Below are positions 5,428 to 62,596 of a stretch of 64,000 nt of DNA, one piece after another. Made by a program: the position numbers and the translations under genes. The first letter of the stretch is position 1, and each line of letters starts with the position of its first letter. This DNA comes from Candidatus Krumholzibacteriota bacterium. GTDB lineage: Bacteria > Krumholzibacteriota > Krumholzibacteriia > JAJRXK01. The DNA lies in the NCBI GenBank assembly GCA_024276305.1, contig JAJRXK010000108.1, positions 8,172-72,171 on the forward strand, written 5' to 3'. The notes beneath the pieces are model-generated. The model had not been told where the DNA came from. It did not search any database and was given only the letters and a program-made list of their open reading frames with translations.

Positions 5428-5646
5428 CGTTTTCTCCTCTCTCGCAGAAGCCCGATCGGGGCGGCATTGCAGACTCCATGGTCGCCCATTGAACCCCGCC
5501 TGGGGCCATTCCACAAGGGCGACACTTCTCCCCGCCTCCATGGACTTCCAGCCGCCGATCCTGCTACACTGGGGAGTCTCGTCTCGCCAGCAGCGCGCCC
5601 TGCGCGTTTGCGCACTTTTTCTGCCTTCAACCTCTGGAAGTCCACC

Positions 5647-17300: not shown

Positions 17301-17545
17301 CGGATCTCGTCGATGCCGTCCACCCCTTGGACCTGTTCTTCGATCTTGATGCAGATCGACTCCTCGACCTCCGAGGGAGTTGCCCCGGGATAGGGGACGG
17401 TGACCACCACCGCGTCGGCGGAGAATTCGGGGAAGATCTCCTGCCGCAGGGTGAACACCGTGGTCAGCCCCCCCGACAGGACCAGAATCATGAGCACATT
17501 GGCCGCGACGGAATTCTCGGCGAACCAGCGAACCACGCCCTTCAT
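14348..17545 (-). CDS. RND efflux permease (AcrB/HAE1-like)
   Basis: 12-TM RND architecture, about 1065 aa. ATG overlaps the upstream adaptor's stop (ATGA). Confidence 0.9.
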
Positions 17546-20934: not shown

Positions 20935-23900
20935 TCAGGGAGATCCGTCCTCCAACGGAAGCCCAAGAGCCCAAAGGAGTTGTGCTCGCCTTGACTGGAG
21001 TTGGGCCTGGGCCCGGACCCAGCGGCTCTCGGCCCGGGTGCGGGCCGTCTCGGCGTCGAGGAGGCGAGTCAGAGTGGCCCGGCCTTCGCGGTAACGGAGT
21101 TGGATCACCCGATAGGCTTCGGCCGCGGCCCGTCGGCCCTCAGAAGCCGCGGTCAGCTGGGCTTCGGCCGTCGAGAGGGCGGAACGGGCGACTTCGATCT
21201 GTCGGCGGATCTCGCGATCGCGGCGGCTTCGCTCGTACTCGGCCTGCCGGGCCCGGGCTCGGGCTCGGGCACTGCGGGCGGAGATCTCTCCCCCCGACCA
21301 CGGGGTCCAATGCAAACCGGCGGCGAGGTCCACCGAATCGTCCCGGAGTTGCGGGTCGGCCTCCGGCCAGAAGGTGCTCCATCGGGCATAGGCCACGACT
21401 TCGGGCCAACGCTCCCGGTGGGCGGCTTCGGCCTGGGCCTGGGCCCCGGCCAGTCGGTGGGTCGCGGCCTCGAGTTCCGGACGCCGCGGCGCCTTCACCC
21501 CGAGGGGCTCGGGGGGGACCATCACTTCGGAAGCTTCGGCCAGGGGGGGCAGCTCCTCGAGGGGGATCCCCAGGAGTTCGGCCAGGAAGGACCTCGCTTC
21601 CGTCCAGGCTCCGTGGGCCGCCACCCGAGCGGCGCGGACTTCGGCCGCCCGTGCTTCGAGCTGGAGGAGGTCGGCCTCGAGAGCTCTTCCGGCTTCGGCC
21701 CGCAGGCGGGCGTCGTCCACTTCGCCTTGGACCAGGGTCAACGCCGATTCCTGGACCCGCACTTCGGCCCGGGCCGACTGGACGAGGAAGTAGACTCGGG
21801 CCAGATCGACTTCGAGCTGTCGAGTGCGGGCTCGATGCAGAGCCTCTTCCGACTTCCATTGGAGGCGGGCCGCGCGAATCGAGGACTCGCGGGAAGCGCT
21901 GAAGATCTGCCAATCCGCTCGGGCCTCGCCGGTGATCAGATTCACGCTGGCATCGGGATCGAAGGCCAACAGATCCTCGGGGCCGCGGATGTCGCGGAGT
22001 TGCACTCCGAAACTCTGAGCGGGATCACTGGTGCGCAGGAAGTTTCCCGACACCGACAGGCGTGGCCAACGCGCGGCGCGAGCCAGCCCGTAGTCCGCCG
22101 ATGAGGCCTCGACCGCAGACTCGGAGATCGCCCACTGGGCGTTGTTCGCGCGCAGGTGCCCGAGGGCATCGTCCAGGCTCAGCTCGGTCGCCGTGGCCGG
22201 CACCGTCCCCCCCAAGGTCCACAGCCCGAGCAGTACTCCTGCGGTGGTGAGGCCTCCGAGCCGGCGTCGACGCCCGCGGCCGGCGACTTCGCGCCGCATG
22301 AATTCGAGGGTGAGTGCGGGCACCAGAACCAGCGTGACCACCGTCGAAGCTCCGAGCCCGCCGATGACCACCCAACCCAGGGGTCCCCACATCGATCCGC
22401 CGAAGAGGGTCAGGGGCAAGAGCCCCGCTTGCGTGGTGAGGGTGGTGAGAAGAATGGGCTGCAGTCGGGTCTGGGCTCCGCGGCGGACGGCCTCGGACAG
22501 TTCCATTCCCTCGCGCAGGTTCCGGCTGATGCGGTCCACGAGCACGATGGCGTCGTTGACCACGATGCCGGTCAACGCGAGGAGCCCGATGAAGGCGGTG
22601 AATCCGAACGGCCAGCCACTCACCAGCAGTCCGACCACCGCTCCCGCCAGCGCCACCGGGATGCTGGTGAAGATCACGAAGGGCAACTTGAAGGACGAGA
22701 ACTGCAGCACCAAAATGCCGTAGATGAGCCCCAGGGCGATGAGCACATTCTGGAGCATGCTCAGAAAGGCGCGATCGCGTTCCTCGTCTTCGCCGATCAC
22801 TTCCCAGGATTCGCGGCCGTCGAGGGGGAGCCCTTTGACGGTGGGCATGAGGTCGGCCACGATCTCCGTGGCCAACCGGCCATCGAGATCGGCCCCTACG
22901 ACCACCGATCGTTCGAGGTCGGTGTGCATGATCCGCGCATAGGTCGGCGCCAGCCGCGGGGAGCTCAGTGACGAGAGGGGAACCGGAGCCGAACCTGCCA
23001 CCGGAATCCGGATGCGGGCGAGGTCGTCGAAGCTCTCCCGACCCTCGGGGGCGACGCGGACCACGACGTCGATGTCCTCGTCCTGACGGCGCAGGGTCGT
23101 CGCCGTCGCCCCGGCCATGGCCACCCGGATCTCCGCCGCCACCATTGCGGTTTCCAACCCGGCGCGTTGGACCTTGACCGGGTCCAAGCGGAGGTCGAGG
23201 CGTGGCGGACCGGGTTTGAGATCGTGCGACACATTGATGGCGCCGGGAATCTCGTGTAGCGCGGCGGCGAGCTGGTCGGCGTGGGCCCGCAGGCGTTCGA
23301 GGTCGGGGCCCTTGAGGCGAATCGAGACCGGCATTCCCACCGGGGGACCCTGCACGAAGAGCTTGGTCTCGAGGTCCAGTTTCGGGTGCTGAGCGAAGGC
23401 GCGGCGGATCTCCCGGGCGAAGTCGGGGATCTCTTTCGACCGGGATCGGGGGACGGTGACCAGCAATTCGGCAAAGTTCGCCTGCTCGAAACTCCGAATG
23501 ATGTTGTAGTAGGTAAGGGGATTTCCCTTGCCCACGTTGGTGGTCACGTGCACCGCCATGTCCTGGGCGCGGACAAAGTTCTCGACTTCGATGGCGGCGG
23601 CTTCGGTGGCTTGGAAGTTCGTCGCCTGGGGAGTCTTCACTCGAATCAACAGCTGCGGTTTGTCGTCGGCCCTCGGGAAGAAATTGAATCCAACCTGAGT
23701 GCTGAGGGTCATCACCAGGGCCGACGCAACGAAGATGGTGAGAATGGTGGTCCGCGGCTTGCGGTCCAAGGTCTCCAGCACTCGAGCGTAGAAGCCCTGG
23801 GAGGCGAAGCGATTCAGCGCGGGTTGGAGCCCCTGCGGTCGGGCGGCCGCGTCGGTGGCGAAGAGGCGTGAGGCGATGAGTGGGGTCGCGAAGAGGGCCA

Positions 23901-25320
23901 CCGCCAGGCTGACGAGGAGCACCACCGAGACCACCGAGGGAATGTCGCGGGTGAAGTCTCCAACGGACCCGGCCATGAAGAGCATGGGCACGAAGGCCGC
24001 AATCGTGGTGGCCGTGCTGCTGGTGATGGCCGAGGCCACCTGCCCCGTGCCTTCGATGGCGGCGTCGCGGGCGCTGCGTCCCCGATGTCGTTCGTAGAGA
24101 ATCGCTTCGAAGACCACCACCGCATTGTCGACCAAGAGGCCCAGCACCACCACCAGACCGGCGATGGACATCTGCTGGAGAGAGATGCCGCAGGATTCGA
24201 GGAGCCAGAAGCTGATCCCGACGGCGAGGAACATGGCCGTGGAGGCTACCACCGCGGCGCGCCATCCCACGAGAAGGACGACGAAGAAGACGATGATCCC
24301 CGCGCCCTGGAAGAGGCTCATCCCGAAGGTCGACAGGCGGGCGTGCACGTCCTCGCTCTGATCGAGGACGATCTCGGCCTGGATGTGAGAGGGAAGACTC
24401 TTTCGAAAGTCGTCGAAGCGGTCGCGGGCGGACTCGGTCAGCGCGAAGACATTGCGGCCTTCCTTCAGAGTGGCAGTGACGAGAGTGGCCGGTCGGCCGT
24501 CTTGCCGGACCAAGTAGGTCGCATCTTCATATCCCCAGCTCACGGTGGCAAAGTCGCCGAGGCGCACCGGTCTTCCGTCCACGCTCCGCAGAACGGTGTC
24601 GCGAATCTGGTCGAGCGTCTCGAAACGCGAATTGGGCCGGATGCTCAACTTTCGGGGACCGGTCACCAGAGTGCCGCCGGGGAGGTCTCCGTTGGCCGAC
24701 GCGAGCGCGGCCATCACTCGTTGCAGGGTCAGCCCGGCGCTGGCCATTCGGGCGGGATTCACCAGCACTTGCACTTGGGTGTCCAATTCTCCTTCGACTC
24801 GGACTTCCTTGACGTCGGGCAGAGTGTTCCAACGGTCCTGGAGTTCTTCGGCCCAATCCCTGAGCTCTTCGGCGGTGGCGGTGGAGGAGGAGATCGCCGC
24901 CTGCAACACGGTGACCGAAGAGGGCTGGATCGAGCGCAGGGAGAGTTCGACCACTCCCTGCGGGAGGTCCGCCTGGACCGCGTTCACGCGCTGGACGAAT
25001 TCGTCGTAGGCATTCTCCTTGTCGGAATCATCCACCCATTCCGCGGTGATCACCGCTACACCGTCCGCCGCAATGGACTCGATGATCTCCACGTCCTCGA
25101 GTTCGTGGATGGATTCTTCGAGGGGCTCGAGCACGCGATTCTCGAGCTCCTCGGGGGTGGCTGCGGGATAGATCACGGTGACGATCCCGCCGAAGGAAGG
25201 CAGCTCCGGGTCTTCTTGCCGAGGCATCTTCAGAAAGCTCACCGCGCCCAGGACGACCGCGGCCAGGGTCAGGACGATGACGAAGCGGTAGTTGGCGAAA
25301 GCAAACCGGGTGGGATTCAT
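20935..25320 (-). CDS. Single 1461-codon ORF: RND permease (25320..22300) fused in-frame, with no stop, to a TolC-family outer membrane factor (22299..20935) that retains its own ATG and signal peptide
   Basis: The RND part ends ...LVPALTLEF. It is followed immediately by MRREVAGRGRRRRLGGLTTAGVLLGLWTLGGTVPATA|TELSLDD and TolC repeats to the stop at 20935. Confidence 0.8.
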   Translation of the reverse strand: MNPTRFAFANYRFVIVLTLAAVVLGAVSFLKMPRQEDPELPSFGGIVTVIYPAATPEELENRVLEPLEESIHELEDVEIIESIAADGVAVITAEWVDDSDKENAYDEFVQRVNAVQADLPQGVVELSLRSIQPSSVTVLQAAISSSTATAEELRDWAEELQDRWNTLPDVKEVRVEGELDTQVQVLVNPARMASAGLTLQRVMAALASANGDLPGGTLVTGPRKLSIRPNSRFETLDQIRDTVLRSVDGRPVRLGDFATVSWGYEDATYLVRQDGRPATLVTATLKEGRNVFALTESARDRFDDFRKSLPSHIQAEIVLDQSEDVHARLSTFGMSLFQGAGIIVFFVVLLVGWRAAVVASTAMFLAVGISFWLLESCGISLQQMSIAGLVVVLGLLVDNAVVVFEAILYERHRGRSARDAAIEGTGQVASAITSSTATTIAAFVPMLFMAGSVGDFTRDIPSVVSVVLLVSLAVALFATPLIASRLFATDAAARPQGLQPALNRFASQGFYARVLETLDRKPRTTILTIFVASALVMTLSTQVGFNFFPRADDKPQLLIRVKTPQATNFQATEAAAIEVENFVRAQDMAVHVTTNVGKGNPLTYYNIIRSFEQANFAELLVTVPRSRSKEIPDFAREIRRAFAQHPKLDLETKLFVQGPPVGMPVSIRLKGPDLERLRAHADQLAAALHEIPGAINVSHDLKPGPPRLDLRLDPVKVQRAGLETAMVAAEIRVAMAGATATTLRRQDEDIDVVVRVAPEGRESFDDLARIRIPVAGSAPVPLSSLSSPRLAPTYARIMHTDLERSVVVGADLDGRLATEIVADLMPTVKGLPLDGRESWEVIGEDEERDRAFLSMLQNVLIALGLIYGILVLQFSSFKLPFVIFTSIPVALAGAVVGLLVSGWPFGFTAFIGLLALTGIVVNDAIVLVDRISRNLREGMELSEAVRRGAQTRLQPILLTTLTTQAGLLPLTLFGGSMWGPLGWVVIGGLGASTVVTLVLVPALTLEFMRREVAGRGRRRRLGGLTTAGVLLGLWTLGGTVPATATELSLDDALGHLRANNAQWAISESAVEASSADYGLARAARWPRLSVSGNFLRTSDPAQSFGVQLRDIRGPEDLLAFDPDASVNLITGEARADWQIFSASRESSIRAARLQWKSEEALHRARTRQLEVDLARVYFLVQSARAEVRVQESALTLVQGEVDDARLRAEAGRALEADLLQLEARAAEVRAARVAAHGAWTEARSFLAELLGIPLEELPPLAEASEVMVPPEPLGVKAPRRPELEAATHRLAGAQAQAEAAHRERWPEVVAYARWSTFWPEADPQLRDDSVDLAAGLHWTPWSGGEISARSARARARARQAEYERSRRDREIRRQIEVARSALSTAEAQLTAASEGRRAAAEAYRVIQLRYREGRATLTRLLDAETARTRAESRWVRAQAQLQSRRAQLLWALGLPLEDGSP

Positions 25321-47028: not shown

Positions 47029-47744
47029 TTCGCTCTCCTCCTCGGGAATCAGAGGTCGGGACTCCACCGCGTCCACGGCTTGCCACGCGATGGCGTAGCC
47101 CAGGATCACCTGGGACAGATAGTGCTTGTGGTCGTTGATCCTCGACCATCCCACCGCCGGTGAGATCGAAGTGGCGATGACCCTGGGAAGGGTCAGGCCG
47201 CATCGACGTGCGGCCACGAGCCAGGGAATGGCGCCGATGAAGCAATGACCCGAAGCGGCGTTGTCATCGGCGAAGGGACGGAAGCGGGGCCCATGGGTGT
47301 GGTCCTTGGGTCGTGCTCCCCCCAGACCGCGCTGCACCGTCCACAGGGTGGGCAGTCCCACGACCATGGCGGCGAAGCTCTGACGACCCCAGCGGGAGAG
47401 GGGAGTGCTGGCCCAGAAGCGATCCATCAACGCGAAGGCCGCCCATACTCCGAACCATCCCCGTTCGCCGAAGTGGTGCAGGGTCTTCGCGATCCGATCG
47501 GAGCGGGGCCCTTGGACCCGGCGGTGGTGCCAGGATTCCACGGCCTCGTCCGCTCCGCCATAGGCCAGCAAGGCCGCTCCGCCGATGGCGACGGCGAGGC
47601 GGAGGACATTGCGGCGGGTGTAGAGGCGGCGGTAGTCCTTCCCCGTTCTGCGGACCAAGCCCTCTCCCCGTCGGGGTCGGTTCCTCAACCCCCAGATCGC
47701 GGTCGCGAACCACAGGAGGATGACCAGGACGAAGACGGAGTTCA
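46978..47744 (-). CDS. PAP2-family phosphatase
   Basis: KDHTHGPRFRPF, SGH and SRINDHKHYLSQV (the three PAP2 motifs). GTG start overlaps the upstream stop. Confidence 0.75.
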
Positions 47745-49208
47745 CTTCAGCTCGGCCGGGAAGTCGAGGTCGAAGGCTTCGAGGCTTCCGGTTGCGGGGT
47801 CGCCCCACAGGAGTCGGTGATGGTTGGTGTCGGCGATCAGCAGGCGCTGGCCGACGGCGGTGATTCCGGCCGGTTCGTCCAGAGCCGTGGAGTCGGCCTC
47901 CGCGAAGAGATTCCGGCACCGCCGGGTTCGCAGATCGATGGCCTTGATCTTGTGATTGAAGGTGTCCGCCACGTAGAGGATCTCTCCGATGCGGGCGAGA
48001 TCCATGCAATGCTGCAGGAGAACGTCTTCGCCCTCGCCATCGACGTCTCCATAATCGAAGAGTCCTTGGCCGACCACCGTCTGTACGATTCCCTCTTCCA
48101 GATTCACCGCTCGCACGCTGCTGACTTCACTGTCCGCGACCATCAGATGGTTCCCGGCCAAGCAGAGACCGCTGGGTTGGGCAAAGGCGGCCTCTTGCAA
48201 CGAGGCGTCGATGTGGTCCTCCACTCCACTCCCCGCCCACGCTCCGATTTCGGCCTTCTCGATGTCGTAGAGCCACAGCTGATGGCTTCCGGCCATGGCG
48301 ATGACCAGGTGGTCTCCCGCTGCGACCACGTACCAGGGCGAACGCAGCGCATTCTCCAGCGGACGCTCGGGGTCGTGGTCGTCTCCACTGGTCCCGAGCT
48401 CTCCGTTGCCGGCGATCGTCTCCACCCAGAAGAGGTCGAGGTCGATGCGTCGCAATGCATGATTTCCCCGATCGGCCACGTAGAGATGGTGGTGGTGCCG
48501 GGTCATCCCCTGCGGATCCCGGAAGGTGGCGTGGTCGTGCCGTCCGTCACGGAGTCCGGGACTTCCGTCGCCGATGATCTTTTCCACCCGTCCGGCGTGG
48601 TCGCAGACCACGATGCGGTGGTGACCGCTGTCGGCGATGTAGATCCGTCGGTCGTCCGCGGCGACCTTTCCCGGATAGTAGAGTTGATGGTGGTCGGTGG
48701 TGGGGTCGGATCCGGGGTCGCGGAAGTCGGGGCGGAGGCAGCCCTTCTCGTTGCCTTCGGCCAGCAACTCTTCGATCCGGCCGGAGAGATCGTCGACCGT
48801 GGTCTCGCCGGAGATGTGCTCGCGCACATAACCCTCGGCGTCGACGAGAACGATCGTGGGCCAGGCTTTGACCAGGAATTGGGACCAGAGTTCCTGTCGC
48901 GAATCCATCACCACCGGGTGCTGGATGTGGTAGCGATGGACGGCATTCGCCACGCTCTCGTAGTCCTGCTCCTGCAGGAACTTGGGAGTATGGACACCGA
49001 CGACCTGCACCGGGGCGAGGGCGAATCGCTCTTCGATACGTGAGAGATGGGGCATCATGTGAAGACAGTTGATGCAGCAGTGGGTCCAGAAATCCAGGAC
49101 GATCACCTGCCCCTTCATCTGGGCGGTCCACTCGGCGGGGTCTTCGCAGTTCAGCCACGGGACATCGCTTGGGAGCTCAGCGGCGCGGACTTTCCCCAGG
49201 TCGGTCAT
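47742..49208 (-). CDS. Thioredoxin-like (TlpA-type) domain fused to NHL-repeat beta-propeller
   Basis: FWTHCCINCLH active-site region. Six NHL-like repeats (YVADRGNH, LIADTNHH and others). Confidence 0.8.
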   Translation of the reverse strand: MTDLGKVRAAELPSDVPWLNCEDPAEWTAQMKGQVIVLDFWTHCCINCLHMMPHLSRIEERFALAPVQVVGVHTPKFLQEQDYESVANAVHRYHIQHPVVMDSRQELWSQFLVKAWPTIVLVDAEGYVREHISGETTVDDLSGRIEELLAEGNEKGCLRPDFRDPGSDPTTDHHQLYYPGKVAADDRRIYIADSGHHRIVVCDHAGRVEKIIGDGSPGLRDGRHDHATFRDPQGMTRHHHHLYVADRGNHALRRIDLDLFWVETIAGNGELGTSGDDHDPERPLENALRSPWYVVAAGDHLVIAMAGSHQLWLYDIEKAEIGAWAGSGVEDHIDASLQEAAFAQPSGLCLAGNHLMVADSEVSSVRAVNLEEGIVQTVVGQGLFDYGDVDGEGEDVLLQHCMDLARIGEILYVADTFNHKIKAIDLRTRRCRNLFAEADSTALDEPAGITAVGQRLLIADTNHHRLLWGDPATGSLEAFDLDFPAELK

Positions 49209-49369
49209 GGATTCTCTTGGGCTCGGGGACGGAGGCGATCTGCGGGCTAGAGTGCCGTCTCGACCACATTTCGTCCAGCCGCGACTGGGCACAGCCTTGA
49301 CGAGCCCCCTCTCCGAAGAGATCTTGAGCGTTCATGGGGTCCGAGAGCCTTCGTCCTGGGGAGAGAGCC

Positions 49370-53345: not shown

Positions 53346-55175
53346 TCACAGGATTCCCAATTCCCTCAAGCTCGATTCGAGTTGGGTGACCAGCTGATCG
53401 CAGCGTTGGACCACGTCTTCGATGGGACCTGCTTCGCGTAGATTCACTCCCGCGCGTTGGAGCTGATCGATGGGATGGGAGGAGCTTCCCGATGCCAGGA
53501 GCTCGAGATAGCGTGGGACCACCACCTCGCGATTCTCTCCCTGCATGGCCTTGGCGATCGCCGCGGCCGAGGCGAAGCAAGTCGCGTACTGGTACACGTA
53601 GTAGGGTGTTCGGTAGAGATGGGGAATGCGGGCCCAGGTGAGAGCATAGGCCTCGTCGTGGACGATGGCATCTCCGTAGTAGTCGACCATCAGTTCTCGA
53701 TAGATCTCCGACAGGCTGTCCGCGGTCATGGCCTTCCCCGCTTCGATGTCTCGATGGGCGCGGAGTTCGAAGTCGGCGAAGAGAACCTGGGTGTAGAAGG
53801 TTCCCACCATGCTGTCGATGGCGTGCTGCAAGAGCAGGGTTCGTTCGCCGGGGTCACGGCTCTCGGCGAGGAGATGATCGAGGAGCAGACCCTCGTTCAA
53901 GGTCGATGCCACTTCGGCCACGAAGATGGTGTAGTCGGAGTAGACATAGGGTTGGGCGGCATGAGCGAGGACGGTGTGCATGCTGTGGCCCATCTCATGG
54001 GCCAGGGTGAACATGTCTCCCCGGGTGTCCTTGTAGTTCATCAGGACGTAGGGATGAACGCCGTAGACCGGGGCGCTATAAGCTCCCGACCTCTTCCCGG
54101 CATTCTCGTAGACGTCGATCCAGCCCGACCCGAAGGCCTCCTGCAGGCGGGACTGGTACTGTTCTCCCAAGGGGCGCACCGAGGCCACGATGTGTTCGAC
54201 GGCTTCCTCGTAGGGATAGGAGAGATCGCGGCGGACCAGGGGAACCTGAGAGTCGTAGAGGTGCATCTGCTCGAGGCCGAGGGCCTGTTGGCGCAGCCGG
54301 AGATAGCGCCGGAGAGGTGCGACCGCACTGCGGGTCGTCTCGATCAGGTTCTCGACCACCGCGGTGGGGATGGCATCGCCGTCGAGTGAGGCCTCGAGGG
54401 TCGACGCATAGCCTCGACTGCGGGCGAAGAACCAGTCCCGATGACATACTGCGCTGTAGAGGGCCGCATAGGTGTTCCGGTGATTCTCGAAGACCCCGTA
54501 GAGGGCTTCGAAGGCGGCGCGGCGATCCTTCTGGGAGGCACTGGTGCTCAGCAAGTGGTGGTAGGTCGAATAGGTGAGGGTGATTTCTTCCCCACTCTCG
54601 AGGACGATCCGGGGCCACTTGATGTCGGCACCACTCAGCATCGAGTAGGCTTCCCGGGGGGCGTTCGCGAGTTGAGAGGTGTAGCTGAGGAGGGTCTCTC
54701 GGGCTTCGTCGAGGACGTGTCGCTGTTGACGGAAGAGATCCGAGAGATAGAAGCGGTAGGGACCGAGCCGAGGATCTTCGGTGCACCAACGATCGACGCA
54801 CTCTTCCCCGAGGGCGAGGAGTTGGGGACGAAACCAGGCGGTCGCCGTTCCGGCCCGGGCCAGAAGCTCGGTCACCCGTTGTTTGTGGGCGGCGATCTCG
54901 TTGCGTCGGAGGTCCTCGTCGTGCATGAGCGCCGGATACCACCACACCCGTTGCGCCGCTTCGTCGATGCTGTCGTTGAGGCTCAAGATCTCGACCAAGG
55001 TCGATGCCCCCTCGGCCACTCGGCCCTGGAAGGCCTGCATCCGGTCGATCTGCTCTTCCAGAGACTTCATCGCCGTGTCCCAGGCGTCGAAGTTCTCGAA
55101 GATCTGCTCCAGCTTCCATCGCCGGTCGGCTGGAATCTGCTCACGAGGGAGAGGTTTCGTCGCCGTGGACGGCAT
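53346..55175 (-). CDS. pepF: Oligoendopeptidase F (M3B family)
   Basis: HEMGH zinc motif. M3 fold-length protein. ATG at 55175. Confidence 0.85.
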   Translation of the reverse strand: MPSTATKPLPREQIPADRRWKLEQIFENFDAWDTAMKSLEEQIDRMQAFQGRVAEGASTLVEILSLNDSIDEAAQRVWWYPALMHDEDLRRNEIAAHKQRVTELLARAGTATAWFRPQLLALGEECVDRWCTEDPRLGPYRFYLSDLFRQQRHVLDEARETLLSYTSQLANAPREAYSMLSGADIKWPRIVLESGEEITLTYSTYHHLLSTSASQKDRRAAFEALYGVFENHRNTYAALYSAVCHRDWFFARSRGYASTLEASLDGDAIPTAVVENLIETTRSAVAPLRRYLRLRQQALGLEQMHLYDSQVPLVRRDLSYPYEEAVEHIVASVRPLGEQYQSRLQEAFGSGWIDVYENAGKRSGAYSAPVYGVHPYVLMNYKDTRGDMFTLAHEMGHSMHTVLAHAAQPYVYSDYTIFVAEVASTLNEGLLLDHLLAESRDPGERTLLLQHAIDSMVGTFYTQVLFADFELRAHRDIEAGKAMTADSLSEIYRELMVDYYGDAIVHDEAYALTWARIPHLYRTPYYVYQYATCFASAAAIAKAMQGENREVVVPRYLELLASGSSSHPIDQLQRAGVNLREAGPIEDVVQRCDQLVTQLESSLRELGIL

Positions 55176-55386
55176 CGTGGTGCTCCATTCTTGGGCGAGA
55201 AGGCGGTGATGGCCCCAGAATTGCAAAAACCTTCGGATGCAGCGGAAGCCCGCCGACGCCGGAGGCGCCAACCGCAACCAAAGTACTCGAAGGAGGGGGA
55301 TTCGGCTCTCGCTCCTTCGATTCGAAGGGACTAGGGTGGCGATTCGACAACCCAGTTCGTCGACGACCGGCCCGCCTCTTTCCGGG

Positions 55387-57795
55387 ATGGAGATGGCGAG
55401 AGCCCTCGCCCGAGGCTCGGGGATCGCGGAGATCATCCGCCCCATTCTCGACCACATCGCCTTCCGCTGCGGTCGGGAAGCGATCGCTCTCTACGAACTC
55501 TCCGAGTCCGGAGGGAGCCGGCGAGTGGCCGCGGTCGGAAGCCTGGCCGCGGGAGAGGGGCAGGTGCCGGTGGCCCTGTTTCCGCTCCTGCATCAGGTCC
55601 TGAAGACGGGCCAGCCCCGAAGCCTGGAGTCTTCGGTGCTCGAGGAGGAGCTGCGCGGCACGCCTTATCAGCTCCTCCGGAGTGCAACCCTCCTTCCCAT
55701 CTCGGTGACCGACGATCTCGGCGCGGTCTTGGCTCTCGGAGACCCGATCCGTTCCGAGGCCGAGGACGAGGGTCGGGATCTCGTCACCGAACTGAGCTGC
55801 GAAGTGGGAACCTTGGCCCTCGTCCTCGTGCACCAAGCCCATGCCCAGCCTCTGCATCGAGGAGTAGAAGCCGAGCCGGATCCCACCGAGCGCATGTTGG
55901 CCCTGACGACCTTGAGAGACATGATTCCCCAGGTGGTGTTGGTCAAGGACCTCGAGAACCGGGTGTTGTGGGCGAATCGCCGGGCCGAGGAGTTCTACCA
56001 TCTGCGTCGGGAGCAGATGGAAGGCGAATTCCTCTGGGAGATCGATCCTCTCAACGCGGCCCAGTCCTACCGGGCCGATCTGGCCGTTCTCGAATCGGGG
56101 GAGGCCCAGTCGGGCTCGTTGGAGTGCATCACCGGGATGCAGGGCGAAGAGGTCTGGCTCCGAGTGGATCGAGCTCCGGTCTTCGGAGATGGGGGCCGGA
56201 TCGTGGCCGTGGTCACCGCCGCCGAGGAGGTCAGCGATCAGCTGCGCTCGGCCGAAGCACTCCGGCAGCGGGAAGAGGACGCATCCCGGGCCGAACGCCG
56301 CCGGGACCAGTATCTCCTGGCCCTGGCCAGCGAAGTTCGGGAGCCCTTGGTGCAGGCCCAGCGACGCCTGGCCCAGTTGCGAAGCTCCGAAGAAGATTCC
56401 GCCCTCGCCCAGGCCCTCGACGCGATCCTCGAGATTCAACAGCAGTCCCTGTCCAACATTCAGGATCTCCTCGATTTCTCGCGGGTGGAGAATGGCAACC
56501 TGGCCATCCAGACCTACGATTTCGACCTCGAGGAGATCGTCTGGGACGTGCTTTCGGCCTGCGAGCGAAGTGCGCGGCGCCGAGGCATCGAATTGGCGAG
56601 CCGAGTCGCTCCGGAATGCCCGACCCGGGTTGCCGGCGATGCCAGCCGGGTCCGCCAGATCTTGATCCAGATCGTGGGATGTGCGCTGCGGGTGGCGCGA
56701 GGCGGAGAGGTCTTTCTGCTCTGTTCTCCTCTCGGCGAAGATCGCACCGCGCCTCTTCTGCGATTCGAAGTGCGCGCCCCGTCGTCGAATCTCAATCTCC
56801 AGGAGCTCGAGGAGTATTTCGCGGCCTACCGCAGCGACGTGGCTGCCGGCGAAGCGGTGGATTCGACCCACGAACTCCGGCTGGCCCTGGCCCGGACGCT
56901 GACCCGTCTGCTGGGAGGCGAGGTCGACGTGGAGATTGCCGCCGATCGCAGTTTCGTGTGTCGGTGTCAGATTCCTCTGCGCCGCCCCATCGATCTGGGG
57001 GTTGTCGGCGCGAGTGCTCTCCCCCGGGCGGGAGCACGAGTCCTGCTCTGCGAACCGAATGCGAATATGCGAGCCATTCACGATCAGCGTCTGCGAGATC
57101 TACAGATGGTCGTCGACACCGCCTCCCAGCCGAGGGTGGGAGCGGAGATGGTGCGGGCGGCCTTCCAATCGGGGTGGCCCTACGACGTCGTGATCTGCGA
57201 GCGCTCCGACGAGGGGCAGGATTCCCAGCTCGCGACCGCGGTGGACGAGGTCGGTCGAGGAACCATGGTCTGGATGATGGACGGTCGCCCCTCGAGGGAA
57301 GAGATCGAGAGCGGTGAAGTGCTCCGTCTCCCCTGGCGGCAGAACGATCTCCGTGAGCTCCTCTGCCGAAGTTGTGGAGCCCAATCGGGAGAGGTCGATC
57401 TGCGTTCCGGCCACGAAGGGGAGCGCAGTTTTCTGGTGGTGGACGACGATCCCGTGCGGGCCCAGGTGACGGCGTTCGCCTTGCGGCGGATCGGTGGAAG
57501 CGTGTGGGTGGCGTCGAAGCAGGAGGAGGCCCTCGACCAGATCGAGCGCAGGGACTTCGACCTGGTGATCGTGGACGAGGACTGGCTCGCGCGGGGACAC
57601 GAAAGCATCGTCGACGATCTGCGCCGTCTGGAGGGGAGTCAGCGTCGCACCCGCATCGCGGTGGGAGTCCACGAAGTGGATCCGGCGCGAGTGGAAGAGC
57701 TGGCCGCCCGCGGATTCGATGGGCTCATCGGGAAGCCCCTCGACGTCGACGCCCTCTTTCGCATCCTTGCCTGCGGTGGGATGGTGACCCTCTGA
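55387..57795 (+). CDS. Hybrid sensor protein: GAF-PAS, degenerate (pseudo) HisKA/HATPase, degenerate receiver, then intact receiver
   Basis: H-box reads ASEVREPL (no His). N, G1 and G2 boxes are replaced (CALRVA, APSSNL, ELRLAL). The first REC-like domain lacks the acidic pocket (LLCEPNA, ICERSD). The final REC is intact (LVVDDDP, DLVIVDED, GKPLD). Confidence 0.75.
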   Translation: MEMARALARGSGIAEIIRPILDHIAFRCGREAIALYELSESGGSRRVAAVGSLAAGEGQVPVALFPLLHQVLKTGQPRSLESSVLEEELRGTPYQLLRSATLLPISVTDDLGAVLALGDPIRSEAEDEGRDLVTELSCEVGTLALVLVHQAHAQPLHRGVEAEPDPTERMLALTTLRDMIPQVVLVKDLENRVLWANRRAEEFYHLRREQMEGEFLWEIDPLNAAQSYRADLAVLESGEAQSGSLECITGMQGEEVWLRVDRAPVFGDGGRIVAVVTAAEEVSDQLRSAEALRQREEDASRAERRRDQYLLALASEVREPLVQAQRRLAQLRSSEEDSALAQALDAILEIQQQSLSNIQDLLDFSRVENGNLAIQTYDFDLEEIVWDVLSACERSARRRGIELASRVAPECPTRVAGDASRVRQILIQIVGCALRVARGGEVFLLCSPLGEDRTAPLLRFEVRAPSSNLNLQELEEYFAAYRSDVAAGEAVDSTHELRLALARTLTRLLGGEVDVEIAADRSFVCRCQIPLRRPIDLGVVGASALPRAGARVLLCEPNANMRAIHDQRLRDLQMVVDTASQPRVGAEMVRAAFQSGWPYDVVICERSDEGQDSQLATAVDEVGRGTMVWMMDGRPSREEIESGEVLRLPWRQNDLRELLCRSCGAQSGEVDLRSGHEGERSFLVVDDDPVRAQVTAFALRRIGGSVWVASKQEEALDQIERRDFDLVIVDEDWLARGHESIVDDLRRLEGSQRRTRIAVGVHEVDPARVEELAARGFDGLIGKPLDVDALFRILACGGMVTL

Positions 57796-57823
57796 GTTTC
57801 GGTCCGAGACTTCGACCTTCATC

Positions 57824-57856
57824 GAGAAGCCCCGGTCCCTGAGACCGGGGCTTCTC
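57824..57856. terminator. Perfect 14-bp stem / 5-nt loop hairpin between convergent genes
   Basis: gagaagccccggtc-cctga-gaccggggcttctc, 30 nt after the sensor gene's stop. Confidence 0.5.
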
Positions 57857-57910
57857 GCCGCTACCCTTGGGGAGGGCTGGCGTGGCTCCGCCGTGCGGTG
57901 GCGAAGAGAT

Positions 57911-58894
57911 TCAATTCTCGTGCAGCTCCTCGAGTTCCGCGCGAAGTTCGCTCACCTGCTCCTGCAGCTCCTCGAGTTTCTCGCGAAGGCTCCGATCCCC
58001 GCGCATCTCTTGGTATTGGTGAAGTCGCATCCTGGGTCCCCGGAACTTGTGGAGTCCCTGGGGCGCTCTCGGGGGTCCGGGGAAGCGATCGTTCTTGCCA
58101 TCGGGAATGACCATGGTGAAGAACTGATCCTCCTGGAGTTCGACTTCGACGCTCTTCTTCTTTTTCTCGCGGAGGAAGTCGATCTTCACCCGGTCTCCGC
58201 TCTCGTAGTCCGAAAGGGCGGCCTGAAGGTCCGTAGTGTCTTCGACCTCTTCGCCGTCGACGGCCAGAATGACATCGCCCGGCTGCAGTCCCGCCTCCTC
58301 CGCTGCGGAATCCTCGGCCACGCTCAGGACCAGGGCCCCCTCCTCCGTTCCGAAGTAGCGGCCCAGCTCCTTGCCGAGGGTCTCGATCCGGGCCCCGAGG
58401 ACTCCGTGGCGGCGCCAGGAAAAACCGGGGATGTCGCCATCGAAGACTTCGATGTCGTCGTCATCCCCCGAGAAGAAGGCGAAGTTGCGGGATTGGGGGC
58501 TCTTTCCCAGGGTCACCTCGATCTTCTTGGTCTTGCCCTTGCGGAGGACTTCGACGGTGACCTCATCGCCGGCCTTCGAACGGCGGACGCGTCGCGTCAA
58601 TCCGCGCACGCTCTTGGCCGCAGTTCCGTCGAAGCTGATGATGACGTCCCCTTGTTCGATGCCGGCTTCCTCCGCCGGACTGTCTTCGACGACATCGCGC
58701 ACCAGGACGCCGTGATCGGTGCCTTCGAGGTCGAGGGCGACGAGGAGTGCATCGTCGAGGTCTTGGAGGTGAACTCCCAGATAGCCGTGGGCGGCCCCCG
58801 CGAAGGCCGGCCCGGCAAAGAGTGCCACGGCGAGGATGGTCATCAGCACGAGGCGGCGCCGAGGTCCGGACGAGGCTTGGGAATCGAGAATCAT
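57911..58894 (-). CDS. Periplasmic tandem-PDZ-domain protein with C-terminal coiled coil
   Basis: Signal peptide. Two PDZ domains (GVLVRDVVEDSPAEEAGIEQGDVI, ALVLSVAEDSAAEEAGLQPGDVI). Confidence 0.75.
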   Translation of the reverse strand: MILDSQASSGPRRRLVLMTILAVALFAGPAFAGAAHGYLGVHLQDLDDALLVALDLEGTDHGVLVRDVVEDSPAEEAGIEQGDVIISFDGTAAKSVRGLTRRVRRSKAGDEVTVEVLRKGKTKKIEVTLGKSPQSRNFAFFSGDDDDIEVFDGDIPGFSWRRHGVLGARIETLGKELGRYFGTEEGALVLSVAEDSAAEEAGLQPGDVILAVDGEEVEDTTDLQAALSDYESGDRVKIDFLREKKKKSVEVELQEDQFFTMVIPDGKNDRFPGPPRAPQGLHKFRGPRMRLHQYQEMRGDRSLREKLEELQEQVSELRAELEELHEN

Positions 58895-59079
58895 AGCAGC
58901 AGCTCCTAGCGGTCTTGAAGAGACACAGATGAAGCGACTCGCTGAGAGTCCTTCGGCTGCGGGTTCGATCGTCGTACGCGGTCCAGCCTTCCGGGTTCCA
59001 ATCGAGTCCAGAGTCCCGGCAATCGCCGTTCAAGATCTCTGGAGGGTGGCCGAAGACCCAGGAGAAGCCCTGTCCCTCG

Positions 59080-61122
59080 GTGACCGGGCGATCCTCCTCA
59101 CCAGCGTGGGAAGCCTTGGCTCCTCTATCTCTTCGTCAGCGATTCTTGGTCGCTCTGCTGCCGGTAGTGGTGGGAGGGCCTCTGGTGGTCGGCCTGGTGG
59201 CGGAGTGGTCCGCATCCCGGTCGAGAGATGCCCACTGGCGGCGCGAACTCGATGTTGGTCTGGCCGCGGTGTCGGCCCCGGTGGTCTCGCACCTGGGCGA
59301 TCTGGATTCGGCCGCTCGAGTCTTCGCCGACCGCTGGGAAGCCTTGGGAGCGGAAGCGGCGGGAGTGGAGGTGGCCCGACGCACTCCGGCTCCGGCTTGG
59401 GTGGAAGAGGCCCGGCTCCTTCTGCGCCAGTGGCCCGAAGTCGAGGAAGTCTTCGCGGTGGCGGACTCCCGCTCCGGAAAGGTCTACGCCCAGGTGCGGC
59501 GAGACTGGGTCCGCAGCTCCGTACTGCGGTCGGAGTCGGGCCCTCCGTGGGTGCGACGACGCGAAGCCCCGCCCCGCCCCGCCTTCCGCTTCACCGAGTC
59601 CGAGGGTGGTCCTCGTCTCTTCTGGACCCCGGAGTCGGGAGAGGATTCCCGTTTCGCGGTGGGTTTGGTCCTCGATCCCCGCTTTCTTCGGCGCGAGGAG
59701 GGGCCCTTCGATCTGGACCTGCCCCACTACTTTGCCCTTCTGGCCCCCGGGGGAGAGGTTCTCTTCGCCCGGAGCGTGGGCGCGGGAGCGATGTGGCCGA
59801 AAGAGCTGGCGCAGCGAGTGCGCACCATGGATCCGGCCCGCCCCGTCGATCCCCAAGCCTGGGAAGCGGAGGGTCGGAGTTGGTGGGTGGGTTGGCGCCA
59901 CGATCCCGCTTCGGGGCTGACTGCGGTTCTGGCCATGTCGCCGGACTCCCAAGGAGGACCGCAGAAATCCCTGGTGCTGGCCCTGGTCATCGCCCTGGCT
60001 GCACTCACCGGCAGCCTCTTCATCAACCACCTCGTGGGCAGGGTGACCCGTCCCCTCGAGAGGTTGGGAAAGGCCATGCGCAGGGTCGCATCAGGGGATC
60101 TCCGGCCCCGCATTCCGGTGCGGGGAAGCGACGAGATGGTCCACCTGGCGCGGTCCTTCAACTCCATGGTGACCGATCTCCACACCACCCATGAGGCCAT
60201 GCTCACCCAACGGGTGGCTCTGAGCGATGCGCTGAGGGAAGCCGAGAGCGTGGAGCGAATGAAGGACGATTTCCTGGCCCTGGTGAGCCACGAGGTGCGC
60301 ACTCCTCTGACCACCATCCTCGGAGGAATCGAATTCCTCCTCGAAGGATTTCGCGAGAGCGACAGCACTACCGAAATCGAGTTCATGACCATGGTGCAGC
60401 AGAGTGCGCAGCGCCTCGGCGATTTCATGAACGACGCCATTCTCATGGCCAACCTTCAGTCCAAGGGCGGAGAACAGGGCTTCGAGGAATTCTCCCTGAC
60501 CGGACTCGTCGACATGGAGATCGCACGGGTGCAGAAGCAGATCGAGGGCTTGGAACTCCACCTCGCTCCGAACTTTCGCCAGACCAAGGAAGTCTTCGTG
60601 GAAGGCGATTGGACTCTCTTCCAAGTCGCCGTTCAGAAGTTGCTCGACAATGCCTGGCGTCACAATCGTCCCCAGGGGAGGATCGTGGTCGACATCGTGG
60701 ACCGGATCGAGGAGGACTCGGGAGAGGATCTCGCGACGCACATGGTGGGTCTCGGACGGGGTCCGCGCCAGGAGTCCCATGTGTGGCGCGCTCTGCGCAT
60801 CGTGAACACTGGAGATTGTGTCGAGGCCCACGAGATCCCCCGACTCTTTCGCCGATTCGAACTCTCGCACGAGATCGACCACCACCAGAAAGGCTCGGGA
60901 CTGTCCTTGCCCATCGTGGCGTCCATCACCGACTACCACGGGGGAGTCCTCGAGGCCCGGCCCCGTCCGGGAGAGGGGATGGCCTTCTACCTCATTCTCT
61001 CCATGCGCGAGGCCGAGGCGCCTCGAAACCGAGTCCCGAATCAGGAGGAAGGCATCGACGATGTGGTCCGGATGGCCCGTGAACTCGGAGAGGTCCCCCG
61101 GGATCAGCCCGTCGCACTCTGA
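59080..61122 (+). CDS. Sensor histidine kinase (periplasmic sensor, HAMP, HisKA, HATPase)
   Basis: SHEVRTPL H-box. N box (LLDNAWRHN). G1 (NTGD) and G2 (GSGLSL) boxes. GTG start at 59080, with an alternative TTG about 40 nt downstream. Confidence 0.8.
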   Translation: MTGRSSSPAWEALAPLSLRQRFLVALLPVVVGGPLVVGLVAEWSASRSRDAHWRRELDVGLAAVSAPVVSHLGDLDSAARVFADRWEALGAEAAGVEVARRTPAPAWVEEARLLLRQWPEVEEVFAVADSRSGKVYAQVRRDWVRSSVLRSESGPPWVRRREAPPRPAFRFTESEGGPRLFWTPESGEDSRFAVGLVLDPRFLRREEGPFDLDLPHYFALLAPGGEVLFARSVGAGAMWPKELAQRVRTMDPARPVDPQAWEAEGRSWWVGWRHDPASGLTAVLAMSPDSQGGPQKSLVLALVIALAALTGSLFINHLVGRVTRPLERLGKAMRRVASGDLRPRIPVRGSDEMVHLARSFNSMVTDLHTTHEAMLTQRVALSDALREAESVERMKDDFLALVSHEVRTPLTTILGGIEFLLEGFRESDSTTEIEFMTMVQQSAQRLGDFMNDAILMANLQSKGGEQGFEEFSLTGLVDMEIARVQKQIEGLELHLAPNFRQTKEVFVEGDWTLFQVAVQKLLDNAWRHNRPQGRIVVDIVDRIEEDSGEDLATHMVGLGRGPRQESHVWRALRIVNTGDCVEAHEIPRLFRRFELSHEIDHHQKGSGLSLPIVASITDYHGGVLEARPRPGEGMAFYLILSMREAEAPRNRVPNQEEGIDDVVRMARELGEVPRDQPVAL

Positions 61123-61132
61123 TGGTTCGGCC

Positions 61133-62596
61133 TCAACGCCACGGAAGAGAGATGGCGGAGCTGAGCGCGATCTCCCGACTCCCGCTCGAATTGTAGGCGT
61201 GGGACTGCAGGCCCACCTCGAAGTCGAAGGCGGACCCCCGCCGGAGGAGTCCGGCCCCTCCCTGCCACCGCCGCCGCCGGTCGAATTCGATCCCCCCGCG
61301 CAAGACGAATCGGTCTCCCAGGCCCCCCTCCATGGCGGCGCGGAGGGCCGTGCCTCCCAATCCCCCGTCGGCCTGCAGGCCGATTCTCCGCGCCCCTCCT
61401 CGCCAACCCAGGTCCAGGCGCCATCGAGAGGCCGGACCCGATTCTTTCAGGCGGAGGGAACTCCCCTCTCGGCTTCGCGTGACTTCGTGGGTCAGGGGAT
61501 CGGTCTCGAAGAGGTCGACGGAGCTTCCGGGCCACCTCCATTCGGCCAGCAGGTCCGAGACTCCCGCCCCCAGTTCCCACCCTCCCATGCGGAGGGAGAC
61601 TCCCAGGTCGGCGGCCCAGGTCCCGGCTAGGCCGGAGAGCCCTCGGGCCCGAGAGAATTCTCGGCGCATTTGCGGCCGGTACTGGAGTTGCGACCCCGTG
61701 GACTCGAATTCGAGGCGTCCTCGGTAGCGCCGGTAGAAGAGACCGGTGCTCCGTCGCAGGCTCCATCCCACGGCCAGGCGCAGGGCGCGGGTCTGGGAAT
61801 TCCAGTAGGCCTCCCGCCAGTCCTCTCCGGCCCGAGGCGCGGGCCGATAGACCTCGAATTGCTTGGCCCAGCTGATGCCGCTGCTCAGATTCGCCGCGGT
61901 CCAGGTGTCCACGGTGGCGATGCCCAGGGCGCCCGGGAGCGGGGAATCTCCGTCCATCCAGGATTGCAGGCGGCGGTCGGGACGCAGATCGACCTGGACC
62001 CGCTCTTCGACCTGTGCGACCACCACCCTCAGGGTTCCCCACTGCTGGCCCAGGGGCCACTGCCTCGCCAGGGCTCCGAGGACCCGAGTGAGGCCGAGGT
62101 CACCCCCTCTTCGGGGAAGGATCTCTCTCAGGGAGGTGGGTGAGAGAAGGGCCAGGCTCGGCTCCGTCCCCGTGGGGCCGCCGAAGCCCAGTCCCTCGAA
62201 GTGCTTTCCCCCTCCGCTCAACACCAGCGGATGACGCAGACCCAGGTCCACCGCTCGGATCCACTCGAAGTCCCCGGTCTGCGGATCGAAGCTGGGCCGG
62301 TCGAAGAGCCAGGTTCCCAGCCCGAGGGGCAGTGGCAGGCGATGCCCTCGGCGATGCCCTCGGCGGGGACCTTCCTCCCAGGCCAGGTACGAAGGATTGG
62401 CCGCCAAGCTCGATGCGTCGCGGTTCCCGAAGGCAGTGCCCGCCAACGCGGCCGATCGGGGGTCGAGGCTCTGACCCTGGGCCGGAGCGAAGAGGCTGGC
62501 CCAGGAGAGGGCCACTCCGAAAAGGATCGCCACCGACCTTCTCGCCGAAGCACCCCGTTTCGGGGTCGATGGATTCGGGGATGCCAGGCGCCGCAC
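61133..62596 (-). CDS. Secreted hypothetical protein (possible outer-membrane beta-barrel)
   Basis: Signal peptide ARRSVAILFGVALSWASLFAPAQG. Gly/Arg/Trp-rich. No recognised domain. Confidence 0.5.
   Translation of the reverse strand: MRRLASPNPSTPKRGASARRSVAILFGVALSWASLFAPAQGQSLDPRSAALAGTAFGNRDASSLAANPSYLAWEEGPRRGHRRGHRLPLPLGLGTWLFDRPSFDPQTGDFEWIRAVDLGLRHPLVLSGGGKHFEGLGFGGPTGTEPSLALLSPTSLREILPRRGGDLGLTRVLGALARQWPLGQQWGTLRVVVAQVEERVQVDLRPDRRLQSWMDGDSPLPGALGIATVDTWTAANLSSGISWAKQFEVYRPAPRAGEDWREAYWNSQTRALRLAVGWSLRRSTGLFYRRYRGRLEFESTGSQLQYRPQMRREFSRARGLSGLAGTWAADLGVSLRMGGWELGAGVSDLLAEWRWPGSSVDLFETDPLTHEVTRSREGSSLRLKESGPASRWRLDLGWRGGARRIGLQADGGLGGTALRAAMEGGLGDRFVLRGGIEFDRRRRWQGGAGLLRRGSAFDFEVGLQSHAYNSSGSREIALSSAISLPWR

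Follow-up and report, generated by a model that had tools for sequence, protein, structure and literature searches.

What can a hybrid histidine kinase still do once the boxes of its kinase core are gone? Our interest in this question arose from a gene at 55387-57795 on the forward strand of a 64,000-nucleotide stretch of DNA (hereafter the window), taken from contig JAJRXK010000108.1 of a Candidatus Krumholzibacteriota bacterium whose genome has roughly 65% GC. An earlier reading by a model, made from the letters alone (the sequence-only reading), had described the product as a hybrid sensor with a catalytically dead kinase core, one dead receiver and one intact receiver, probably sensing through GAF/PAS and phosphorylated in trans by a nearby kinase. 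The alignments reported here show the product to be a histidine pseudokinase, predicted to be cytoplasmic and to derive from a DHp-CA-REC-REC hybrid kinase of the BarA/TorS/GacS/RetS type. With regard to its role, we would give an even chance to the protein being a non-catalytic adaptor that is regulated by its GAF/PAS region, works through protein-protein contacts and has an orphan HAMP kinase encoded nearby as its most likely partner.

Homology and loss of the catalytic residues

The open reading frame (ORF) at 55237-57795 (+) is the sole long frame at the site in the ORF listing, and the gene probably starts at the ATG at 55387 (802 residues) or at the ATG at 55393 (800 residues). The second start agrees with an identical 800-residue database protein (P0001) and with the starts of the orthologues. 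No transmembrane segment was found in the product, no 19-residue segment reaching a Kyte-Doolittle mean of 1.6 or more, so the protein is taken to be soluble. A scan of 55100-59200 for promoters and terminators found nothing. Six domains follow one another along the chain. An alpha/beta domain (residues 1-165; 55387-55881) precedes a PAS domain (residues 170-290; 55894-56256), which is followed by a DHp-like two-helix hairpin (residues 291-372; 56257-56502), delimited by structure alignments to GacS, RetS and AHK kinases and by the helices of the model, and by a CA-like domain of the HATPase_c fold (residues 373-533; 56503-56985), placed by alignments and Foldseek. The C-terminal part consists of REC1 (residues 545-665; 57019-57381), placed by a REC1 profile, a CheY-anchored alignment and its predicted fold, and REC2 (residues 681-796; 57427-57774), placed by its Response_reg match, receiver alignments and the family comparison.

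Pfam detected the PAS domain (residues 180-285; PAS_4 2.8e-12, with additional PAS_9 and PAS matches) and the second receiver (residues 683-793; Response_reg 38.9 bits), and left HisKA (14.1 bits) and HATPase_c (20.7 bits) below threshold. Among NCBIfam models the protein matched TorS (4.3e-38), BarA (8.1e-31) and RcsD (7.3e-11), as well as ArcB, RcsC and LuxQ. A phmmer comparison with solved kinases placed the AHK-type plant kinase 7P8E first (1.7e-21), followed by GacS 7Z8N (2.9e-20) and RetS 6DK8 (6.9e-18, the RetS structures 6DK8, 6DK7 and 7N0E all scoring about 7e-18), and also returned ShkA 6QRJ (2.5e-10, query 310-790 on chain 6-475), phytochrome B kinase-related domains (3.9e-6) and DivL (6.5e-5). 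A hidden Markov model (HMM) built from active relatives scored 102 bits on the kinase core. The consensus of these active relatives is DHp-CA-REC-REC-Hpt, which indicates that the ancestor was a two-receiver hybrid or unorthodox kinase. At the level of sequence, homology to the BarA/TorS/GacS/RetS-type hybrid kinases is unambiguous.

Motifs were placed through significant phmmer alignments to solved kinases rather than by visual matching. The H-box ALASEVREPL (residues 312-321; 56320-56349) aligns with MSHEIRTPL, and in three independent alignments Ser315 (56329-56331) occupies the position of the phospho-accepting histidine (SHEIRTP). At the N-box IVGCALRVA (56671-56697), QILIQIVGCALRVA pairs with QILTNLVGNAIKFT, and the Asn that serves Mg-ATP is a Cys (GCALRVA vs GNAIKFT). 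The G1 segment VRAPSSNL (56770-56793), set against VQDTGIGL, has A-P-S-S-N where D-x-G-x-G is expected, and the G2 segment THELRLALA (56866-56892), set against T-GLGLVIS, has HELRL where G-x-G-L-G is expected. The H-box, N-box, G1, G2 and receiver strings singled out by the sequence-only reading all lie where it had placed them, and the structure alignments bear out the loss of catalytic residues that it had proposed to check. An alternative acceptor histidine in the H-box helix was looked for and rejected, the DHp region (residues 283-372) being without any His. Thus, of the features of a competent HisKA kinase, the fold and the homology are kept and the His, the N-box Asn, G1 and G2 are all gone.

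The HisKA phosphatase motif H-E/D-x-x-T/N, required of HisKA transmitters (PMC5992135; PMC12963549), is missing as well. The site reads S-E-V-R-E in the window protein, D-E-V-R-E in the orthologues P0002 and P0003, and E-E-V-Q-T in the orthologue P0004. No autophosphorylation is to be expected because the phospho-acceptor His and the ATP-binding motifs (Asn, G1 and G2) are all absent, and the alignments show that a protein of this sequence cannot be a conventional autokinase or a HisKA phosphatase.

An enzyme of another kind, which phosphorylates Ser315 or some other residue or uses a non-canonical nucleotide site, is barely credible. Non-canonical activity has been proposed for the kinase-related domains of plant phytochromes and ethylene receptors. 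The phytochrome B kinase-related domains are among the matches listed above, the window protein does carry a Ser at the His position, and one distant relative (P0246) retains its N and G1 boxes. However, the Ser is not conserved, the position reading D, D, E, E, Q, R, G and so on among the relatives, and the destruction of N, G1 and G2 in the window's clade leaves no Bergerat-fold nucleotide site.

Mosaic decay and purifying selection in the family

Close orthologues were sought among 5.8 billion clustered proteins, and a metagenome scan was added. The protein search returned only three (P0002-P0004; 51-55% identity), the next match (25% identity) already lying within true hybrid kinases. The metagenome scan gave a partial fifth sequence (L005), so that four close orthologues are available at 47-56% identity overall; no orthologue turned up among the species-representative genomes of GTDB. 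All four are degenerate at every scorable box. In place of the His the window protein has S and the four orthologues have D, D, E and E, the N-box Asn position reads C, C, C and E in the window protein and the three full-length orthologues, and G1 and G2 are degenerate in every close orthologue that covers them. The degenerate state, whose conservation the sequence-only reading had left to be checked, is therefore conserved, and no close orthologue has intact boxes.

More distant relatives were collected by a full HMMER search of the family profile against 1.84 billion cluster representatives, one per 50%-identity cluster of a library compiled from about 15 billion proteins. Just seven more full-length colinear relatives were obtained (P0242-P0248; 320-390 bits, 27-31% identity), below which the scores fall to generic hybrid kinases. 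The family thus consists of the window's own cluster and seven further representatives. Three of the distant relatives were checked for position, namely those on contigs L010 (an 851-residue product, presumably P0245), L012 (P0246) and L013 (P0242), and in all three the gene lies divergently beside pepF, the oligoendopeptidase F gene that also adjoins it in the window.

The catalytic residues of P0242-P0248 have decayed in a mosaic fashion. The His position reads H (in P0242 only), Q, R, D, G, Q and Q, and both the N-box Asn and an intact G1 (D-N-G-A-G) are retained in P0246 alone. The Asp and Lys of REC1 are retained in P0243, P0245, P0246 and P0248. The Lys of REC2 is lost in P0242 (R), P0245 (G) and P0248 (P), a non-Asp residue stands in the REC2 D57 column of P0245 and P0248, and no member covering REC2 has its Thr/Ser. 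A complete catalytic set was found in none of the family members, and the remnants differ between them. Since close and distant orthologues are degenerate and no member has the full set, autokinase competence was lost long ago, and decay then proceeded independently in different lineages. A recent inactivation was rejected on the same grounds. Two members carry opposite remnants: P0242 (L013:3750-6329) keeps its His (TLAHDVRVPL) with dead N and G1 boxes, and P0246 (L012:8001-10589) keeps the N-box Asn and the DNGAG of G1 with Gly at the His position.

The ratio of nonsynonymous to synonymous substitution rates (dN/dS) was estimated from the unsaturated pair P0002/P0003 (dS 0.40). It amounted to 0.056 for PAS, 0.08 for the CA-like domain, 0.11 for REC2, 0.13 for DHp, 0.21 for the N-terminal domain and 0.22 for the REC1-like domain. 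Invariant columns make up 40-52% of PAS, DHp, CA, REC1 and REC2 in sequences that are about 55% identical overall. The window pseudokinase is 56% identical to its counterpart on contig L001, where the neighboring genes are 56-59% and pepF 72% identical to those of the window, and no fewer than 10 independent genomes or metagenome contigs carry the ORF intact and at full length. A pseudogene was rejected on the dN/dS values, which lie between 0.06 and 0.22 in all domains.

The view that the gene is a decaying relic, a hybrid kinase heading for loss with no present function, would account for the degeneracy of all catalytic modules, for losses that differ by member and for the absence of the gene from the locus in some relatives. 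It is a very improbable view, being largely refuted by the selection data, and the intact frames, the many invariant columns and a fold predicted with high confidence also stand against it. Low dN/dS together with a confident fold instead indicates that the folded, dead modules are kept by selection. The protein accordingly has what characterizes a histidine pseudokinase, namely a retained fold and homology, lost catalytic residues and a degenerate state conserved under purifying selection. Because every phospho-site has decayed in one member or another in this mosaic manner, phosphoryl chemistry does not appear to be what selection keeps, and this is our main argument for a non-catalytic adaptor.

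The two receiver domains

An HMM of the REC1 domains of active relatives matched the REC1-like segment at 32 bits (E 2e-9). At the CheY DD, D57, T87 and K109 positions it reads E-P, E, M (or V or R) and L, so that none of the five canonical residues is present; the relevant strings are LLCEPNA (57043-57063, +) and VICERSD (57190-57210, +). On these alignments REC1 is a genuine receiver homologue, an aspartate-less pseudo-receiver, and the loss of the acidic pair, the Asp and the Lys shows that it cannot be phosphorylated. The first receiver-like domain is thus as dead as the sequence-only reading had it.

A pseudo-receiver in this position recalls ShkA, in which case REC1 would bind a nucleotide second messenger such as cyclic di-GMP (c-di-GMP) and thereby release or tether REC2, making the protein a receptor for that messenger and not a member of a phosphorelay. 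The DHp-CA-pseudoREC-REC core aligns end to end with ShkA 6QRJ, both by phmmer (2.5e-10) and by Foldseek (target-normalised TM-score 0.52), and the acidic pair of ShkA Rec1 is also replaced, by S255/P256 (PMC6969517) as compared with E-P here. However, ShkA, unlike the window protein, is an active kinase, its c-di-GMP site (R324, Y338, R344, S347 and Q351) could not be aligned residue by residue, and REC1-REC2 alone gave no ShkA match at E<=1. REC1 is also the least conserved part after the N-terminal domain (about 50% identity, dN/dS 0.22). Such a switch, which is compatible with the other models, is quite unlikely.

REC2 retains D686 and D687 (VVDDDP, 57436-57453, +), D730 (57574-57576, within IVDEDW, 57568-57585, +) and K783 (GKPLD, 57730-57744, +), as placed by solved-receiver and CheY-anchored alignments. 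It had been called intact, and this holds for the acidic pair, the phospho-acceptor Asp and the Lys, but not for the remaining hallmarks. Thr/Ser87 is missing, AVGVHE standing against IALTAHA so that the position is Gly or Val depending on the register, and this is so throughout the window's clade (four members). Within that clade the T+1 Ala is replaced by His or Asn, the D+4 Pro by Leu, the D+8 Gly by His or Asn and the K-3 aromatic residue by Leu or Cys, whereas the T, A, P and G are present in 12 of the 12 active relatives scored and K-3 is Tyr, His or Phe. P0002 has Ser and P0003 has Ala as the second residue of the acidic pair (D13, D687).

A receiver that lacks even one of the five catalytic residues is defined as a pseudo-receiver (PMC12632262), and the absence of Thr/Ser under this definition makes REC2 an Asp-retaining pseudo-receiver. 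Substitutions at DD, T or K are not always fatal to phosphorylation (PMC12632262). Since they are sometimes tolerated, Asp730 could still be a slow acceptor and may be phosphorylated in trans. The model of the sequence-only reading amounts to what is mechanism 1 in RetS, with the protein as in effect a response regulator or phosphate sink that would receive phosphate from the HAMP kinase on Asp730 and use its dead core and GAF/PAS region as output or modulator. The four retained residues, three of which (D686, D730 and K783) are invariant in the window's clade, speak for this model, as does the precedent of RetS, whose REC2 D858 receives phosphate from the GacS His (PMC5992135). Against it stand the hallmarks that every scored active relative has and the window's clade has lost, the Ser and Ala at D13, the Lys to Arg change of P0242, and P0245 and P0248, in which the REC2 Lys is gone and the D57 column holds something other than Asp. 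The loss of the REC2 Lys, and possibly of the Asp, in distant members whose REC1 keeps both means that phosphorylation of REC2 cannot be the function conserved across the family as a whole. With the evidence from the locus included (see below), we regard this model as a possibility but a doubtful one.

Predicted structure and the sensory region

A full-length AlphaFold2 model was built from a 45-sequence alignment and reached a mean predicted local distance difference test (pLDDT) score of 78.7. It comprises a low-confidence alpha/beta N-terminal domain (pLDDT 37-74), a confident PAS domain (pLDDT >90), DHp helices at residues 283-334 and 338-368, an alpha/beta CA domain at 377-530 and two (beta-alpha)5 domains at 551-663 and 681-796, with the REC1 fold at a pLDDT around 90. 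The model was searched against the PDB with Foldseek, and similarity is given as the target-normalised TM-score (TMt). The RetS core (0.69-0.77), the GacS core (0.70) and the pseudokinase DivL (0.67) were among the matches, and the four-domain ShkA structure ranked second with a TMt of 0.52 over 515 columns.

Sensing had been attributed to a GAF/PAS region. The PAS half of this claim is supported by the PAS_4 match, and the GAF half only indirectly, through distant orthologues. No GAF domain was matched in the N-terminus of the window protein by Pfam or PDB profiles, and this part modelled alone gave a pLDDT of 47. Pfam places a GAF domain at the colinear N-terminal position in seven of the seven distant orthologues (for example GAF_2 at 6.5e-19 in L010), that is in 7 of 11 family members, none of them in the window's clade. 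An hhalign comparison of the window-clade N-termini with the L010 GAF was colinear over 146 columns at a weak E of 0.02. The domain is the least conserved of the protein (28-33% identity, dN/dS 0.21). Taken together, these sequence comparisons suggest that the N-terminal domain is probably a strongly diverged GAF.

Gene neighborhood and the candidate partner

The pseudokinase gene lies between two genes on the minus strand. Oligoendopeptidase F (pepF; 53346-55175, -; Peptidase_M3 1.3e-70) is the divergent syntenic anchor and adjoins the pseudokinase gene in L001, L002, L005, L010, L012 and L013. Homologues of pepF were also returned from Vicinamibacterales and Myxococcales, distant at about 55% identity. 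On the other side is a protein with two PDZ domains (57911-58894, -; PDZ_2 1.4e-41), confirming the tandem-PDZ protein of the sequence-only reading. It has a hydrophobic N-terminal segment (residues 13-35; membrane or signal), no protease domain and a charged C-terminal coiled coil (ELEELQEQVSELRAELEELHEN), and is predicted to be exported or membrane-anchored. Its gene is syntenic in L001, L003 and L012 and absent in L010. Beyond it lies a HAMP-HisKA-HATPase_c membrane kinase (59080-61122, +; assigned by Pfam, with transmembrane residues 20-45 and 295-320), which by NCBIfam is PhoR/PnpS-like and not an unorthodox kinase. Convergent with the kinase gene is that of a 487-residue secreted protein (61133-62596, -; signal-like segment 21-40), which matched no Pfam family; it is 56% identical to its L001 counterpart, and proteins of 452-470 residues occupy the same place in L009, L010 and L012.

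The order pepF, pseudokinase, PDZ, HAMP kinase recurs in L001 and L012, and partial versions are found in L002, L003 (the pseudokinase and PDZ part), L005 and L013. In L010/L011, where the PDZ gene is absent, the pseudokinase gene is followed by the HAMP kinase gene on the same strand at a distance of 131 bp. A search of the 64-kb window with HMMs from active relatives found no other receiver, kinase core or Hpt domain, and hence no response regulator for the HAMP kinase, which therefore counts as an orphan. The receivers closest to it are those of the pseudokinase; a response regulator adjoins the HAMP kinase gene in none of five contexts.

The HAMP kinase had been called bona fide. Its HAMP-HisKA-HATPase_c architecture was confirmed, and nothing is unusual about the H-box (SHEVRTPL), the N-box (LLDNAWRHN) or G2 (GSGLSL). 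In alignments to SrrB and HK853, however, G1 reads N576-T-G-D-C (60805-60819) versus D-T-G-T-G in SrrB. This N-[TS]-G-x-x form is conserved in five of five orthologues (the window, L001:6363-8447, L010:5049-7148, L009:7601-9658 and L012:11899-13092). The G1 Asp of the GHKL/Bergerat fold contacts the N6 of adenine, and an invariant Asn in its place is unusual, so the bona fide status of this kinase is an assumption. The pseudokinase and the HAMP kinase are not paralogues; paralogy was rejected because only the H-box region aligns (BLASTP, 35% over 49 residues). The L012 kinase has just 397 residues and is without the large periplasmic domain.

These observations complete the case for and against trans-phosphorylation. 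The orphan state of the HAMP kinase, the pseudokinase receivers being the only ones in 64 kb, and a synteny kept over deep divergence favor a link between the two proteins. The claim that the neighboring kinase phosphorylates the receiver is nevertheless weakened, since to the lost REC2 hallmarks and the loss of Lys in distant members is added the Asn in place of the G1 Asp in all five kinase orthologues, which leaves autokinase activity uncertain, and neither an Hpt domain nor a downstream regulator is present at the locus.

In the adaptor reading, which has an even chance in our estimate, the GAF/PAS region would sense a ligand or a redox state and the conformation of the pseudo-DHp/CA/receiver core would change in response. 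In its changed state the core would engage a partner and alter its activity, much as RetS does with GacS through its core, or DivL with CckA/DivK. Synteny points to the orphan HAMP kinase as the most likely partner, and this kinase may use the exported tandem-PDZ protein to monitor the envelope. Within the window's clade a phosphoryl group may also pass from the HAMP kinase to Asp730 of REC2, which would be an auxiliary and lineage-specific feature and not what the family conserves at its core.

Several observations weigh against this adaptor reading. The partner is suggested by synteny alone, which could be mere inheritance within one lineage (pepF is 54-72% identical), and the three genes alternate between strands in the window, which implies separate transcription units. 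In L009 the HAMP kinase lies beside pepF with no pseudokinase, and L007 has neither, from which it follows that the HAMP kinase does not need a pseudokinase at the locus. The DHp domains of the two proteins are only remotely alike, so a heterodimer in the manner of RetS and GacS is not indicated. Finally, the invariance of D686, D730 and K783 across the window's clade suits a phospho-acceptor better than a pure scaffold.

A more ambitious version of the idea would join the exported tandem-PDZ protein, the orphan HAMP kinase and the pseudokinase into a regulator-less module for signalling from the envelope to the cytoplasm, in which the pseudokinase is the obligatory cytoplasmic output or adaptor and signals pass by conformational coupling rather than along a His-to-Asp chain. 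We consider such a module unlikely. If it were real, the mosaic decay of the family would document how a two-component pathway gave up phosphoryl chemistry.

Comparison with characterized kinases and pseudokinases

RetS of Pseudomonas aeruginosa (6DK7, 6DK8 and 7N0E) shows no autokinase activity and its G boxes are degenerate; it blocks GacS with its core and takes phosphate from GacS on REC2 (PMC5992135). Like the window protein it has a CA domain without G boxes, does not autophosphorylate and carries two tandem receivers with the functional Asp in the second, and it acts on another kinase rather than on a response regulator (PMC5992135). The differences are considerable. The H-box His and the HExxT motif persist in RetS, whereas SEVRE in the window protein has Ser for the His and Glu for the Thr. 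RetS lies in the membrane and has its sensor in the periplasm, whereas the window protein is soluble with GAF-like/PAS input. RetS REC1 keeps D713, whereas neither the acidic pair nor the Asp or Lys remains in REC1 of the window protein. The periplasmic and membrane input (7TMR-DISM) of a RetS-type sensor, its His with HExxT and its GacS-type unorthodox partner kinase were not found here.

PsmA of Streptomyces venezuelae is a hybrid pseudokinase in which the His is replaced by E, D, Q, V or Y and the receiver Asp is dispensable (PMC12963549). It resembles the window protein in being soluble, in its PAS input, in a variable His position (S, D, E, Q, R, G or H in the present family), in a CA domain without ATP-binding residues, in its C-terminal receiver and in being conserved, gene context included, within a single lineage. 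Unlike the window protein, which has a pseudo-receiver and a receiver, PsmA has a single receiver and a disordered linker of roughly 700 residues, and it binds DivIVA at hyphal tips, nothing comparable being indicated here. PsmA was absent from the sequence matches of the window protein, and orthology between the two is not detectable.

ShkA of Caulobacter crescentus (6QRJ) and the plant cytokinin receptor AHK4/CRE1 (7P8E) share with the window protein the order DHp-CA, degenerate receiver, receiver, and ShkA Rec1 has Pro at its second acidic position (PMC6969517), as does REC1 here. Both, however, are catalytically active, the H, N and G boxes being intact and the receivers canonical and phospho-accepting, and ShkA Rec1 binds c-di-GMP. 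A histidine kinase fold without a functional phospho-His, as in the window protein, is found in DivL (4Q20), also of Caulobacter crescentus, and in the enterobacterial RcsD, which act in multikinase networks. DivL differs in having Tyr at the His position, a CA domain that still binds nucleotide and no receivers. RcsD differs in its functional Hpt domain, none being present in the window protein or elsewhere in the 64-kb window.

To our knowledge, histidine pseudokinases are thinly studied, and only a handful (RetS, DivL, RcsD and PsmA) have been worked out. The window protein belongs to an uncharacterized small family from an uncultured lineage, within a recognized class, and is a new example rather than a new principle, leaving the current picture of two-component signalling unchanged. 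The class is that of the pseudo-histidine kinases sensu Collins and Childers (cited in PMC12632262), and about 0.9% of HisKA domains are without the His (PMC12632262). The value of the family lies in its being a comparative series, in which different subsets of residues were lost at one conserved locus and all members are under purifying selection. It could be used to ask which surfaces of the kinase fold persist once catalysis is dispensable, and to study kinase-to-kinase signalling with a defined candidate partner in the adjacent orphan HAMP kinase.

Other genes of the window and of related contigs

A gene at 47742-49292 (-) encodes a fusion of a thioredoxin-like/AhpC-TSA domain with NHL repeats, and has counterparts at L007:15717-17180, L009:17988-19445 and L010:19917-21377. 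In these related contigs it lies a few genes from pepF and a 4-alpha-glucanotransferase gene, which indicates long-range synteny in the lineage. The ORF at 20935-25320 (-) encodes 1461 residues with a complete resistance-nodulation-division (RND) transporter (ACR_tran, residues 6-1003) and, at the C-terminus, an outer-membrane efflux protein domain (OEP, best stretch 1279-1449), apparently a fusion of an inner-membrane pump with an outer-membrane factor, and a second RND pump gene lies at 14348-17611. An Exo_endo_phos protein with FlgD-Ig-like and Por_Secre_tail domains, the latter a C-terminal sorting domain of the type IX secretion system, is encoded at 5344-7419 (+). On the related contig L009 (ENA ERZ16028321), a Bac_rhodopsin gene at 19519-20319 (-) stands beside a carotenoid-type oxidoreductase/phytoene-synthase gene.

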